Part shown: positions 3,001 through 62,152 of the stretch, in pieces
Numbering within the stretch: the first letter of the stretch is position 1
How the letters are laid out: the number at the start of each line of letters is the position of its first letter
IMG/VR virus record: IMGVR_UViG_3300028886_000055
Span: 32,001-96,000 of that record
Length of the DNA stretch: 64,000 nt
Direction: 5' to 3' (one strand)
DNA from: a virus
Taxonomy: Duplodnaviria; Caudoviricetes
Position numbers and translations under genes: made by a program
The notes under the pieces: model-generated
The model's database searches: none
What the model was told of the DNA's origin: nothing
Seen by the model: the letters and a program-made list of their open reading frames with translations, nothing else

Positions 3001-6000
3001 CAGTTAACTAATTATCAATATCCGCCTACTTGTCAAGAATTTCTGAATCAGTACCATATATTCTTAAAATAGTTTCTAATGAGGTAGTACCTATTGCTTT
3101 TTGAAGTAGTCTCTTAGTTTGTGTATCAATAAAGCCAACGTCTTTAAATTTTTTAATAATTTCTCTGATTTTAGTTGCTTTATTTTTAAGAGCTTCTTTA
3201 TATTTAACTCGATTTTCTAAATCAATTTCTGTTCTTCTTACAGCCTTTTGAGCATCATCTAACTACTAAAATTCCTTAATTTCTTCAGGTGATAATAATA
3301 GTTCTGGCTAATTAGGATCGTAGTTATCTGGATTGTAATATTCTGGATTATATTCTATTTTTAAAATAGGATCTATATCAACTTTACCATCCAAAAACAT
3401 TTCTTTTAATTCATCAATACTACTTACCTTTCCAGCTTGAATTAACTCATCTGTCCTTTCTTGATCTACTAACTCATTCCAAAGTATTTCTCTTACTTTA
3501 ACATGTTCTTCATAAGAATTTGCTTTATCATTAACCGTTTCTGTAAATTTTTCATTAAAATGTTTGTATAAATTATAAGCCTCATCAAATTTATCATATT
3601 TAGTTGCTTCTTTATATTTAATAAAATCTTCTTGTAATTTAGTTAACTATTCAGCAGTTAATTCTTCTTTCTCTTTACCTGTTTTAGCTTTTATATATTG
3701 ACTAAAATTTGCTTTATAGAAAGGATAATTTACAGATTCATCGATTTCAAACAATAACTTATCTACATACTCTGCAGAGGACTATTCTGAAAAGAAAAAA
3801 TCTCTACGTTTTCTTAAATCAGATAATTCTTTTTCTAATTTAGCTAAACCTGCTTCATATGCATTATGTTGTTCAGTTTTTCCATTATTTGTAGCACGTT
3901 CTTTAGATTCAACTACGTCTGGAGAAGTTTTCTTATACTATTCTATTTCAAGGATTTTATCAGCAATTTGCTAAGAAATTTTATTAAAATCCATAACTAG
4001 TCTAGATTGAGTTCCAGTTATACCAACAGCTTCTTGTATTTTTGATAATCTTTGATCCCCAAGTATTATTTTATCTAATACCTAATCATCAGACATATCT
4101 AGACCTTCTTGATGTAAAGCTCTATCAGTAACTTCTATAACTCTTCTAATCTAATTAGCAATTAAACTATTTTGTGAATCCTTTTCATTATCTGCAGTTA
4201 ACCAATTTAAAGTTTCGCCAACCTGTTCTGTTTTTGTTCCAGATAATGTAGTGCTTCCTAACTTACCTTTAGATTGAAGGACTCCTAATTCTTTAAGCAA
4301 TTCAGATTTTTTACCGTTTCTTAATAAATACGTTAATTCCTATTTTTCATTATCAGGACGTGTATTTCTACCCTATACCGTATCTACTCCATAAAAAACT
4401 GCACCGCCAATTGCACCTCCAAAGAAATTCATTAAATAACGATCTCCAGCATTATCCCAAGCATCCATTTTATCTTTACTTACAGTTAATCCTAGATCCT
4501 ATAACATATTAAACGTAGATTTAGTAAAATCTGTTACAAGTTCTTCAGAAACTTCTTCAATACCTTCACCTAATGACTTTCCAAAAAATCCTAATGAATG
4601 TTCTTTTATACCTTGCCAATATTTACTAGAAGCATTTCTGGCACTATCCATAATTTTGAATAATTTACTTCTAGTATCTTTAATACCTTGTGCAATCTAA
4701 TAGCCTTTCGATATATCCTATTTTAAAGTATTAATAGCTGCTCTATATATTTTAGCATCGCTTTGTAATTCAGGAAAAAATAACTCACCTAGACCTGTTC
4801 TATCTACTTTATACATTCCTAACGCTGCGCCCCATGCCATTAAAGCAGCCTCTGTTTTAGTAGCACCTTGAGCTAATGTATCTTCATAGATTTCAAATGC
4901 CTGCATACCAGCCATATACCCAAGAGATGCATTAGCTGCCATTCTATTATTAGCTTCAAGTAGTGGTTTTAATTTATTTTCTGATAATAGTTTATAAGCA
5001 CTATTTATGTTTTGAGATAAATCATTATATGTTCCTTGTAATCTAACAGTAGATTCTAAACCTTTTTGACTAGCTTCATTCGCTAATTGCTTATTTAAAT
5101 TATTAATCTTACTAGCATTTGCCTTTTTAAATAAATCAGCTATCGTTCTTTGTTGCTGCCACTATAATGCTACATCTGCAATAGTATTTGCAAAATTTTC
5201 AAGACTAAATAAATGTGATTGAGAATATTCAGAAGTACTTCCTTTAAACGATCTACTAATACCCTACATCTAATTAAAGAAAGGTAACGTAGTATCTTCT
5301 TTAGAAAAATTACCAGCAATTGTATTATATAACGTAGGTAATAAATCCATTAATTGAGTACCAACCATAGCGTAACCATAATACGGAGCTATAGGTGTAA
5401 ATAATGGTATTATAGAAGCAGCTGTTTTAGCAAGAGTTCCAGATACAGATTTGTCTAATCCGTCAGAGTCAAAGAAATCGTATTTATTTAAAGAAGAACC
5501 ATCTACAGTTAAAGTATCAAAAATAGATTTTACTTTCTTACCATAAGCACTTCTTCCACCAAGAGTTTCATAATAATAATCGCCATCCTCATTAACTTTA
5601 TATTCTCCTTTTTTGTGTTTTATTTTTGCACCAGTTATTGGATCAATTGTTTCCGTATCTGAATCATAAGTTGCTAAAACTAGCGGTTCAAATATAGATT
5701 TAACATATCCGACAAGTGAATTTTCTAAAGCATCGTCGTTTGGAGTACGATCAATAAATTCCTATTTTGTCCAATCATAAATTTTAGATTTTTGAGCTGC
5801 TTCAGATATTGTAATTGTTGGATCACTAATGCTTCCGATTCCACCAAATCCATAAACTTGTTTTAAAGGATTAGCTACTTTTTTAAATTCAATTTCAGGC
5901 TTTTTTATTTTAGCTCCAACTGGTCTAGTTGAATTATACATATCATATTCATAGTCCTAAGCCATCTTAGAAACAATATCATCATCATTTAGTGATTGGT

Positions 6001-27083: not shown

Positions 27084-30000
27084 TTAAGCTTCGCGTAGTA
27101 TAAAGCTCCTGTCAAATGTTACCTATAAGGCTCTTTATCCTTATATTCTACAGTTTCTTATTTAAGTTATATCTGTAGTTCAGACTATATCATCACCTCA
27201 TTGAGGTGTCGGGCACTCGTGTTAGGATTATTGTTTGTGCTACTCACCTATTAGTCGTTAGAGGTTTATCGTACTTTTATACACTTCCGATACTTCCTAC
27301 GGGATTGTCCACTTCTGGAGGTTCCCCGATTTCACCCGATTTGCTACTAATGTCACCATTAGAAGCCTCACAGTTTGTTATTTTATACGTTTTGTGATAA
27401 ATCCATCCAGAATTACAATACTTTCTCATATGATTTGGATTGCATTCAATATTTATCAGCTCTATTTTAATACAAAACTTCTGTAAGGATTAAATACAGC
27501 GATTGAAGCATAGCCCCAGTTAACTAACTTAGAACCTGCTACAGTACTTGAAACTACACCACTGCTTAGACCATCAAGACCGCCTACACCAGCAATCTTA
27601 TTATACATAAAGTCACCGCCTTTAAGAGTGAACATTGCAACAGCAGGATTACCACTAGTACTATCGCTAGTCAAGTCAATCATCATTGCAAAACCCTTCT
27701 CGCTACCAAACTCACGAGTAAACGTTCTATCAACGATGAACGAAATTGTATTACCTGCAAAATTGTAAGAATTATAAGTAGCGCCTACATTAAGGTAACC
27801 ATTAGCTTCCTTAGACCATAGGTATGTACCATCTGGTTTATAGTTAGCAAGCCAAGCACCAAGTTTGTTTTGGATATCCATCCAAGCCTTTTCGTTGCAA
27901 ATAAAGGCGTACTTGTTGCCTGTAGGCTTCTCAGCCTTCTGATTCATCATACCAATAGCTGTCTGCATAGCATCAACAGTCAACTCGCTGTAAATATACT
28001 TGCTAGCATAGCGTTCAACCTGAGGAATTAAACCATCGTACATATAAATAGGACGATTAGTGTTAGGATCTACAATAGTCGCTTTACCATTCTTATCAAC
28101 ATTGCTCTTACCGAATAGGAGAGCACGGTTACGAACCTCAAGGAAGTTCTTTAACAAGTTTTTCTCAACTGTATCCATCTTGTAAATGGTCTCACTTAGA
28201 AGCTTGCCGTTACCGTCACCTTTGCCGATAGAGATAAATTGAGTCTCCGTTGCTTTATAAAGTGCAGAATAGGTATCATCACAACGATGTGTACCAATAT
28301 AACCACGATGTTTCTCAATATTACTCTAATATTTTACATACATTAATGTTAGCTTTATGTCACCATAAAGATCAGACTATATCTTAATCTAAATATTTAA
28401 ATACAAATCCTTTACAATGTTCTCGTTTTCCTTGTGCTACTAACTTAGCATTTTTATAACCAGCTTTTACACAGTCAGTCATTGTATTAAATTCTTCAAG
28501 AAGATTTCCATCATCATCAAATCTACCAACTTTACCTCCAACATAAGGTTTGTCAACAGTTCCCATATTTCTATGTTTTAATTTCTTCATAAAGGGAACT
28601 TTTTCGTAAGAAAACTAATAGCCTAAAAATTGATGTCCTTCTTTAATTGCCCTAGGTAAATGACCTCCACCTTTTGCTGAAGGATTTAAAAATCGGCCTG
28701 CAGAATTCACACTATCAAACTCTCTTACAAAATTTCCATCTAAATCATACATATAAACAGCTTTTCTTGGATTAGCACAATCAGGAAGTCTTCCTCCTAA
28801 CGCTAGATTATATACATCCTCTCTTTGTAAAAATTCTTTATTTACTAATTCTTCTTCAAGCTTATATGCATCTTTTTCATTTTCAAATTCTTTTATTGTA
28901 GTTCTAACAAAATTTTTAACTCCGTATTTTTTAACTGCGGATTGAAAAGGAGTTTTAGGATTCATATAAGTTGTAGGTCTATATATTGATACACCATTTC
29001 CGATATAACCGTCAAAATCATCCTGCTCCGTACCATGTACTCCTATATAAATTTTATTATTAATTTTACAGACTGTTTGATATACTATATATTTCATTTT
29101 GTATTTAAATTTTAGATTTATTCCATTTCGGAGTTTATTTCTCCTACGTCTTTCAGACTAGTCGTTGAACCTTCCTTAGTACTTCTCAATGAGTTTGTAT
29201 TATCTAAGGCTTGGCTGCTGATTGTCTTAAAAAAGAGTTCCCAGCAATTAGAAATATTTTTTTAATTTTTCGCTGTCGTAGCATCAGCGGAAGAGAGCAA
29301 TGTAAAAGGACCATAAAGTCTAAGGGTCACCCTCTTCGTGTAATTCGGGCATATAATTTGCTATAAAGCGAGCAGTATCACCAACAGAATATTCTGTGGG
29401 GTCAATACCATTCTTTAAATCAGTAGTAATGTATCGACATTCACAAATCCAATAGTTATCAGCTCTACGGATAGGTCTAGCAATTACTTGGAACTGTTCA
29501 AAGGTATTATCCATACGAAAAGTATCATATTTTTCAAAATAACGCTCTTTGAAAGCAAACATAATAGAAGTGCCATTGCAACCATCACCTTCAGGTGTTG
29601 CAGCAAGTTCTATACGTTTAATGTAATTTGTTTCAACCTCCCATTCAAAAGTCATACCATCAATTGACTGGAACTTATCAGCCTTCTTCAAATCACGATA
29701 GAAGACATTTCTAAGAGCTTCAGTAAGATAACCTGCTGTAAGCTCAGGATACATTCTACTTACAATACCCAATCTTTCTGGGCGAGTACCAAGGAACTTA
29801 TAGAAATCTTCATAAGTTCTTGTTTCCAATTTTGTTACCGTATTAGTTCTTTATCTAACACTTCTAATGTTTTATCATCACATTAGTTCAGACTATATCA
29901 TCATCTTAAAATAAGATGTTTCGCGCTCGTGTCGAAATATTGTTTGTGTTACTCATTCATTAGTCGTTGAACCTTCTTAGTACTTTTACACACTTCCTAA

Positions 30001-30135
30001 GCTTGGCTACTGATTACCCCAATTTTAATTGAAGGGCTCCCAGTAATTCACGAAATTTGCAATTAGTTATCACTAACTAATGGAGCGAAATTCACTCATT
30101 GTTGGTCTTTTTGTTATGAAATTTGCTACGATCAT
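27084..30135 (-). CDS. Major capsid protein, 4 exons: 30135-30094, 29826-29329, 28340-27485, 27112-27084 (474 aa spliced)
   Basis: Removing three group I introns gives one frame: MIVANFITKRPTMS|ETRTYEDF...LHEEG|YVKY[Q]SNIEKH...VFNP Y|RSFILREA*. Exons total 1425 nt. Lies immediately downstream of the scaffold-like gene. Confidence 0.85.
27113..27484 (-). ncRNA. Group I intron 3 of MCP (372 nt, no HEG); 5' end carries an alternative MCP C-terminus
   Basis: Core elements AAATCGGGGAA, AATCCCGTAGGAAG, TAACGACTA and GATATAGTC; terminal G at 27113. IGS CUGUGAGG pairs 5' exon CCUU (U.G at the splice site) and 3' exon ACAG (P10). Confidence 0.85.
28341..29328 (-). ncRNA. Group I intron 2 of MCP (988 nt) with a homing endonuclease gene inserted before the S element
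   Basis: AATTGCTGGGAA, AATCAGCAGCCAAG, GTTCAACGACTA, AAGATATAGTC. IGS GCUCUCUUC pairs 9/9 with exon GAAGAGGGU; UUUUACAU pairs with 3' exon AUGUAAAA; terminal G at 28341. Confidence 0.92.
28384..29097 (-). CDS. Intron-encoded GIY-YIG homing endonuclease with NUMOD1 repeats (237 aa)
   Basis: MKYIVYQTVCKINNKIYIGVH...YNLALGG; track ORFs 28615-29097 and 28384-28590 join through one TAG. Confidence 0.9.
29827..30093 (-). ncRNA. Group I intron 1 of MCP (267 nt, ORF-less)
   Basis: AATTACTGGGA, AATCAGTAGCCAAG, GTTCAACGACTA, GATATAGTC. Exon GAGU pairs IGS GCUC; UUUC pairs 3' exon GAAA; terminal G at 29827. Confidence 0.9.
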
Positions 30136-31862: not shown

Positions 31863-32107
31863 AATATACTTCCGATAATTAATCCTGTTATTGTACCAAT
31901 AGAATCTGCAAATACGTCATACCAATCCCATTTATTATTAGGATTAACCTTATCGCCGTATTCTTTTCCCCAGGCTGCAGCAGTAGATACTAGGATTCCA
32001 GAAAGTGCAGCATAAGAATAGGGAGAATTAACTATAAAAAATAAACTCATAGTTAAAAAAGTCAATACTGCACAAGCTAGAAAATGTAATATCTTATCTT
32101 TTTGCAT
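31850..32107 (-). CDS. Small membrane protein (VanZ/YfiM-like DKxLH...KE...D..AD motif)
   Basis: MQKDKILHF...WGKEYGD...WDWYDVFADSIG; hydrophobic helices. Confidence 0.65.
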   Translation of the reverse strand: MQKDKILHFLACAVLTFLTMSLFFIVNSPYSYAALSGILVSTAAAWGKEYGDKVNPNNKWDWYDVFADSIGTITGLIIGSILWLI

Positions 32108-62068: not shown

Positions 62069-62078
62069 ATAAAATTAG

Positions 62079-62152
62079 TCGGGGATCTCGGACTCGAACC
62101 GAGACCTTGGGTTTTAGAGACCCTTGCGCTAACCTAATTACGCTAATCCCCA
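62079..62152 (-). tRNA. Amber suppressor tRNA (anticodon CUA), presumably charged with Gln
   Basis: Cloverleaf: TGGGGAT/ATCCCCG acceptor, GCGT/GCGC D stem, GGGT-CTCTAAA-ACCC anticodon arm (CTA at 62117-62115), CTCGG-TTCGAGT-CCGAG T arm; no encoded CCA. Confidence 0.92.

Follow-up and report, generated by a model that had tools for sequence, protein, structure and literature searches.

A group I intron in the capsid gene of a rumen crAss-like phage opens with a conserved in-frame version of the gene's last codons, a probable substitute C-terminus

Why should a group I intron that cuts a capsid gene nine codons from its end open with a second version of those same codons? The question is raised by a stretch of viral DNA of 64,000 nucleotides (nt) (positions 32,001 to 96,000 of the IMG/VR record IMGVR_UViG_3300028886_000055; hereafter the window), which carries on its minus strand the major capsid protein (MCP) gene of a rumen crAss-like phage, interrupted by introns 1, 2 and 3. 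The first 29 nt of intron 3 continue the reading frame of exon 3 and spell a complete ending of the protein, stop codon included, while the native ending lies beyond the intron. We consider it probable (about 0.68) that the intron supplies, in this proximal or "surrogate" tail, a selected substitute capsid C-terminus for use by ribosomes arriving at the 5' splice site while the RNA is still unspliced. The parts of the locus are:

27486-28340, minus strand: MCP exon 3, from its open reading frame (ORF) and translation, covered by RNA contigs without mismatch
27481-27488, minus strand: 5' strand of helix P1, CCUU/ACAG (slash at the splice site), with an 8-bp pairing to the internal guide sequence (IGS)
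27113-27484, minus strand: group I intron 3, 372 nt, from its RF00028 match, RNA contig joints and core covariation
27456-27484, minus strand: surrogate (proximal) tail, the first 29 nt of the intron, in frame with exon 3
27280-27447, minus strand: remnant of an endonuclease gene, its last 56 codons, in another frame
27366-27373, minus strand: IGS CUGUGAGG, 3' strand of P1 and partner in P10, a perfect 8-nt pairing
27113-27365, minus strand: ribozyme core (P2 to P9.x), from the Rfam alignment and RNAalifold, with the terminal G at 27113
27084-27112, minus strand: native (distal) last exon, joined to exon 3 in RNA and matching the intron-less relative L004
26991-27026, minus strand: hairpin and T-run 3' of the distal exon, from inspection of the sequence

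The 5' splice site lies after T27485 and splits a Tyr codon, exon 3 ending in AAT CCT T. The surrogate reads AC AGA AGT TTT GTA TTA AAA TAG AGC TGA, which together with T27485 gives Y R S F V L K Q S and a stop, the Gln being encoded by TAG (27462-27464) and the stop being TGA (27456-27458). The native exon reads AC AGG AGC TTT ATA CTA CGC GAA GCT TAA, that is (Y) R S F I L R E A and a TAA stop. The two tails are identical at only 16 of 29 nt and are nevertheless of equal length with the stop in the same place, and all codon differences are synonymous (R, S, L) or conservative (V/I, K/R, Q/E, S/A). This is how an earlier sequence-only reading, made without database searches, had described the locus, and the description stands on re-reading and recurs in ten further alleles. 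That reading had also placed a terminator after the distal exon; the hairpin and T-run at 27026-26991 are indeed there, follow the distal exon only and not the surrogate, recur after the tail in intron-less relatives, and are likely the terminator of the capsid transcript. Homologues of exon 3 carry the Pfam annotation Crass_capsid (PF23898; precomputed), while a search of PDB sequences with exon 3 gave no match.

Whether the intron is removed at all is answered by RNA. In four metatranscriptome runs, which come from two samples of bovine gut and two studies, contigs join 27108/27112 to 27481/27485 and skip 372 nt, and the 4-nt ambiguity of the joint, which is the ACAG common to the start of the intron and the start of the exon, agrees with the predicted excision. 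Two of the runs anchor the joint by 26 nt on its shorter side, and the remaining two by 64-68 nt. Introns 2 and 1 are likewise missing from these contigs, which match the window with zero mismatches. DNA runs contain every sampled word of the stretch, and the intron-less DNA alleles found in relatives have TAT rather than TAC at the Tyr codon and retain intron 2; because these alleles differ in this way, the RNA joint is best explained by splicing. The exact 372-nt skip is thus, on the simplest reading, splicing, and intron 3 is a real group I intron that is spliced out of RNA. A search of metatranscriptomes for the junction had been proposed as a check on the sequence-only reading, and it returned the spliced joint in the four runs as well as a separate RNA contig (27083-27510) that spans both unspliced junctions. 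All of this evidence consists of contigs and not of raw reads, the depth of which gives no splicing efficiency, and uncovered contig bins (e.g. intron 1 in run X4) carry no evidential weight; runs X7-X24, whose word shares are small, form no part of the evidence. In one RNA run a contig joins 26207, which lies within the downstream gene, to 27476 in the surrogate tail, so that 1268 nt are missing between them; one side of the joint is 25 nt long, and the contig is probably chimeric or cross-strain.

The structure of the intron agrees with its excision. Intron 3 matches RF00028 with 40.7 bits (E 4.2e-8) in an alignment (27163-27394) that covers model positions 1-253 from end to end. The score lies under the gathering threshold of 50 bits by which Rfam assigns membership; the missing bits belong to P1/P2, modelled as a short local hairpin, and the main reason is that P1 is here long-range. 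In the core, both partners have changed with pairing kept in 28 of 59 consensus pairs (RNAalifold, seven alleles). The guide CUGUGAGG (27373-27366) pairs with CCUU/ACAG at 8/8 positions with a U.G wobble at the splice site, the pairing is closed in minimum free energy and centroid folds alike, and P1 shows compensatory changes at exon position -2 (U-A, G-C, A-U), at intron position +2 (C-G, U-A) and at intron position +4 among ten alleles. The intron boundaries, the P1/IGS pairing and the terminal G that had been proposed from the sequence are therefore borne out, since the RNA contigs join at the predicted sites and P1 covaries.

The surrogate contains a TAG, and what it encodes depends on how this codon is read. 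When TAG is taken as a sense codon, ORFs of at least 100 amino acids (aa), counted from stop to stop, cover 72 kb instead of 26 kb, the longest measures 2075 aa instead of 627 aa, and single ORFs contain as many as 51 in-frame TAG. One further feature belongs here:

62078-62152, minus strand: tRNA with anticodon CUA, a decoder of amber codons (ARAGORN and Rfam)

The TAG of the surrogate aligns with CAA (Gln) in the sister allele L018, and TAG aligns with CAA or CAG across orthologous tails. TAG is thus an ordinary sense codon in this crAss-like phage, the whole window being recoded from TAG to Gln, and the intron family itself provides internal comparative proof that TAG means Gln in these phages. 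With TAG as sense, the unspliced message encodes the complete nine-residue tail ending in Lys-Gln-Ser. The sequence-only reading had counted a third isoform, truncated at the TAG. The spliced capsid ORF (481 aa from stop to stop) contains one TAG, the single in-frame TAG near the 5' end of exon 3, and because any ribosome arriving at the surrogate has already decoded that one, no distinct truncated product is expected; a separate TAG-truncated capsid isoform is unlikely.

Which of the two tails belongs to the phage is shown by its relatives. The closest DNA relatives (L003 and L004, with 99% and 98% protein identity) have no intron at the site and a peptide ending of the distal type, the distal exon peptide being identical to the tail of intron-less relatives, and in L004 the tail and the downstream DNA are nearly identical to the distal exon and downstream DNA of the window. 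Since these relatives end in the distal type, the distal exon is the ending native to the lineage, and the 372 nt before it have been inserted. Among 120 capsid homologues, almost all share the nine-residue C-terminal motif, which ends mostly in RE followed by I, V, A or L and sometimes in RQ followed by one residue. With the C-terminal residues so highly conserved, a truncated product would probably be harmful.

The same intron is found in the same Tyr codon in 11 alleles from about eight MCP lineages (the window and ten from other contigs), in assemblies made independently by JGI, ENA and Logan:

Intron-bearing alleles besides the window: L005/L006 (=L011/L012), L009 (=L014, L013), L018, L020, L021, L022, L026, L032, L033, L034

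Where measured by BLASTP, the capsid proteins of these alleles are 60-86% identical to that of the window, and in the clade of L020-L022 the identity is probably lower. The site is polymorphic for presence and absence, with L003, L004, L007 and L008 lacking the intron and L009 carrying it. In alleles with both ends on the contig the order is always the same: exon; nine-codon surrogate and stop; a spacer of 4 to about 120 nt; an endonuclease ORF of 249-258 aa; guide; core; terminal G; native tail. A survey of related genomes with and without the intron had been suggested as a further check, and all relatives with the intron carry the duplicate tail, the close relatives L003 and L004 being intron-less. 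The tail duplication is thus, on this comparison of sequences, a trait of the whole intron family that targets a Tyr codon nine codons from the end of the capsid gene. In the clade of L020 (3631-4404), L021 and L022 the endonuclease ORF of the intron has in-frame TGA at positions where its homologues have Trp, and one intron family therefore spans phages with different recoded stops.

Other relatives have group I introns elsewhere in the 3' region of the capsid gene (after ..NWG, ..AGSKL and ..EPAI; L010 at about 3040-3300, P0018, P0052, P0054, P0055, P0064, P0074, P0076). These have short, junk-like readthrough and no copy of the remaining codons, and the spare tail is therefore specific to the intron in the Tyr codon. 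In the intron-less alleles L017, L019, L027, L028, L029 and L030 the penultimate residue is Gln (CAA, CAG or TAG) in place of Glu; such alleles may resist the endonuclease, or they may have lost the intron and retained its surrogate tail. The idea that a penultimate Gln marks intron-borne tails only is ruled out by the same six alleles. That L005, L006 and L009 might have a native Gln-Ser ending with a free-standing endonuclease gene behind it is contradicted by the distal tail and core further downstream. The core in these three was missed by an RF00028 search by E-value of eight relatives, and the absence of an Rfam match is therefore uninformative here. A scan with a 20-nt core motif found two metagenome contigs, both already known, and no genome contig; a 27-nt motif of the P1 loop had no match among viral contigs; and the phage GenBank collection yielded only intron-less, distant capsid relatives and unrelated introns with common core motifs.

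Between the surrogate and the guide lies what the sequence-only reading had missed, namely the remnant of a deleted endonuclease gene. A predicted homing-endonuclease gene occupies the P1 loop, its last codons overlapping the guide and the 5' half of the core. The intact ORFs in relatives (249-258 aa) match phrog_314 (E 6e-27) and NUMOD3 (33 bits, above the Pfam cut-off); their match to the SegE-type GIY-YIG domain (17.3 bits) is under the cut-off of 25. The remnant in the window is 68% identical (38/56, E 6e-26) to residues 194-249 of the 249-aa endonuclease of L009 and overlaps the IGS and the 5' half of the ribozyme. Upstream of it the gene is gone, back to 10 nt past the surrogate stop. 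Intron 3 of the window contains no intact homing endonuclease and is therefore not itself an endonuclease-bearing mobile intron; to judge from the remnant, it is a member of the family that has lost its endonuclease gene. In L018 the left edge of the deletion is the same as in the window and more of the remnant is lost, with the surrogate intact. In L009 (3364-3372) the TAA of the surrogate is followed after 4 nt by the ATG of the endonuclease gene, the spacers of other alleles being about 100 nt, which suggests a coupling of endonuclease to capsid translation by termination and reinitiation.

The surrogate itself bears signs of constraint. All 11 surrogates consist of nine codons and a stop with zero frameshifts, and all have Gln at the penultimate codon, written TAG or CAA in TAG-recoding phages and CAG or CAA in the TGA-recoding clade. 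The change from TAG in the window to CAA in L018 requires two bases and is synonymous only if TAG means Gln. The Ser codons include AGT, AGC, TCT and TCG, i.e. switches between AGY and TCN, and the stops are TAA or TGA. Between the closest alleles (window-L018, L005-L006, L020-L021) there are four synonymous and zero non-synonymous differences; with 4.3-5.2 of the 27 surrogate sites synonymous by Nei-Gojobori counting (about 17%), the chance of such a pattern under neutrality is roughly 0.001 to 0.005 by our own arithmetic. Across lineages the surrogate has a proportion of non-synonymous differences (pN) of 0-0.34 and of synonymous differences (pS) of 0.2 to saturation, and between lineages the identity of the tail is 17-27/30 nt, while that of the 30 nt past the stop is 7-12/30, which is background. 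In the window and in L018 the endonuclease gene has been eroded by different deletions, and the tail is intact in both. The surrogates also track native residues specific to their lineage (Phe or Tyr at position 4; IL, IA or VL at positions 5-6). The penultimate residue departs from this, Gln standing in the surrogate where nine of the ten paired native tails have Glu: in DNA, the first base of this codon, at intron position +21, is C or T in the surrogates of all ten alleles with both tails and G in nine of the native tails, the exception being L018 (TAG). Frame, length and stop are thus kept in 11 alleles and close pairs differ by synonymous changes only, and the surrogate is shown by these alignments to bear the signature of purifying selection at the protein level, as the sequence-only reading had proposed for the tail within the intron.

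How could such a tail be of use? From the 5' splice site the polymerase would have another 100 nt (in the window) to 800 nt (in copies with an endonuclease gene) to cover before the guide and core, and with transcription and translation coupled the first ribosomes would pass the splice site before the ribozyme exists. The surrogate would let these early ribosomes release a full-length capsid protein with a near-native ending (..SFVLKQS here), and its stop would halt them short of the endonuclease gene and core; later, the spliced RNA would yield the native ending ..SFILREA. We infer both that the surrogate is translated and that translation is the reason for its retention.

Several observations weigh against this interpretation. 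The case for translation is made from the comparison of sequences, and the sample is small (nine codons, about eight lineages). The contigs cannot quantify the share of unspliced RNA, and the unspliced contig may be DNA carry-over. The surrogate resembles the distal tail of its own lineage, so that its upkeep could be due to gene conversion between the two copies, or to co-transfer during homing, with no selection on translation. Finally, the ribozyme is strongly constrained, which means that splicing is not evolutionarily dispensable. This last point divides the earlier suggestion of a self-rescuing intron: rescue is favoured by the constraint on the tail, but splicing, which was to have become dispensable, still matters because the ribozyme is under strong constraint. 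The surrogate looks like insurance, not a replacement for splicing.

A bolder version of the substitute C-terminus, which falls somewhat short of even odds and is offered tentatively, is that a selfish family of introns and endonucleases has evolved a translated spare capsid ending that makes its insertion harmless before or without splicing, that virions would contain two capsid isoforms differing in their last residues, and that the Gln/Glu difference, through the pyrimidine or G at +21, protects the element's own genome from the endonuclease. The shielding role of the +21 base is put forward as a hypothesis only; the junction of exon and surrogate would otherwise mimic the intron-less homing site.

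A different explanation, distinctly less probable though the strongest of the rivals, is that the surrogate is a relic of how a composite element was formed. A free-standing endonuclease gene following the capsid stop would have been moved, with the tail preceding it, by illegitimate recombination into the P1 loop of an ORF-less intron at the same site, and the tail would now be functionless, looking conserved because it is young, carried by the intron or repaired against native tails. The layout of complete tail, stop, spacer and endonuclease gene does resemble the end of a gene with a free-standing gene behind it, and published routes to composite introns predict such joints (PMC3984707). 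Youth is hard to reconcile with an arrangement that spans capsid lineages only about 60% identical and both TAG and TGA recoding. Repair would be compatible with L033, the tails of which share 25/29 nt including rare codons, but in the window, L018, L020 and L026 the proximal and distal copies are only 16-20/29 identical with many synonymous differences, which argues against frequent conversion. The changes between close alleles are, moreover, all synonymous, and the neighbouring endonuclease gene decays while the tail does not. The sequence-only reading had considered a one-off recombination into the P1 loop, which does not fit an arrangement that is a trait of the whole endonuclease-bearing intron family. 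The layout fits the capture of an endonuclease gene together with a tail as the origin of the element, origin and present function being separate questions.

A role of the surrogate in DNA or RNA and not in protein appears improbable. The junction of exon and surrogate would here mimic the homing site, as an immune decoy or an autoregulatory operator, or the tail would extend P1 and close its long loop. An intron operator that mimics the homing site is known for I-TevI, and the fixed difference at +21 (C/T against G in 9/10), while other positions follow the tail of the host, is what would be expected of a base that determines immunity. This leaves unexplained that frame, length, stop and Gln are kept through synonymous swaps and that TAG appears only where TAG means Gln; in addition, two copies lacking an endonuclease (window, L018) keep the tail intact, and intron-less alleles with Gln at that position exist. 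As for RNA, a 7-bp extension of P1 between the tail and a box upstream of the guide is found in several alleles, but it is out of register in L026 and overlaps a conserved peptide motif of the endonuclease, the z-score of the fold (-1.28) is not significant, and the extension is not claimed here. Chance resemblance or an assembly artefact fusing two alleles, which the shortness of the repeat might suggest, is refuted by the same structure in independent JGI, ENA and Logan assemblies, by DNA runs with all sampled words and by RNA contigs with spliced and unspliced junctions.

The element has partial parallels among known systems. The self-splicing introns of T4 td, nrdB and sunY likewise interrupt protein genes of a phage, carry an endonuclease gene in a peripheral loop and have an early stop. 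In phage group I introns such an early in-frame stop is thought to keep ribosomes, which in bacteria follow the polymerase, off the folding ribozyme (PMC3984707). In the T4 introns, however, the readthrough peptide is junk and the unspliced product is cut in mid-protein, whereas here nine codons reproduce the real C-terminus and are conserved; here, too, the endonuclease gene sits in the P1 loop, between splice site and guide. For crAss-like phages of the Delta and Zeta groups, capsid genes with group I introns and the recoding of TAG or TGA have been published (PMC7886860), and those phages resemble the present one in order and gene, in having several introns per capsid gene, in the recoding of TAG or TGA in late genes and in their suppressor tRNAs. 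That paper reports its introns from endonuclease domains only, and in the passages searched neither a duplicated tail nor a product independent of splicing is found.

In fungal mitochondrial atp6 and cob, an endonuclease gene is flanked by two copies of the host's 3' end, the upstream copy completing the ORF (PMC6279837). Those insertions are without a ribozyme and their downstream copy is dead, whereas in the present gene the insert is taken out by a ribozyme and spliced RNA uses the downstream copy; with the distal copy joined to exon 3 in RNA, it is not an unused remnant. Group II introns in the stop codon of groEL rebuild the stop with their first base, so that the protein is complete whether spliced or not (PMC12584367); these are group II retroelements that rely on one nucleotide and leave the protein unchanged, unlike the nine codons of the present group I intron. 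Models of composite mobile introns (invasion by an endonuclease gene, Loizos 1994; collaborative homing), reviewed in PMC3984707, are similar in that intron sequence beside the endonuclease gene resembles the exon target and that one site is the meeting point of an ORF-less intron and a free-standing endonuclease, but they explain origin only and predict no translated, selected copy of an exon. A full-text search of the literature, incomplete in coverage, gave no description of a group I intron with a conserved in-frame copy of the remaining coding sequence.

The other introns of the gene complete the picture of the locus:

28341-29328, minus strand: intron 2, 988 nt, with a GIY-YIG homing-endonuclease ORF (partial RF00028 matches; phrog_314 and related matches; RNA joint 28340 to 29329)
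29824-30090, minus strand: intron 1, 267 nt, boundary ambiguous by 3 nt (RF00028, 84 bits; RNA joint 29823 to 30091)

The endonuclease ORF of intron 2 requires readthrough of an in-frame TAG (28612-28614). Another match resembling a group I intron, the fifth (39 bits), lies outside the window at 109243-109339 on the plus strand of the same 139.7-kb virus record.

For annotation, the family implies a simple rule: where a capsid gene "ends" in ..RQS or ..RQI with an endonuclease gene behind it, a last exon of 29 nt may lie 0.3 to 1 kb downstream. To our knowledge, splicing is assumed to be all that makes group I introns harmless, and in bacteria the chief obstacle to introns in protein genes is taken to be the ribosome close behind the polymerase. 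The present family of mobile introns appears to bypass this coupling barrier in a second way, by bringing along a selected version of the rest of the coding sequence. Should this be confirmed, it would be a natural case of two protein isoforms produced from a bacterial-type intron, and a new strategy by which selfish elements limit the harm done to their host.

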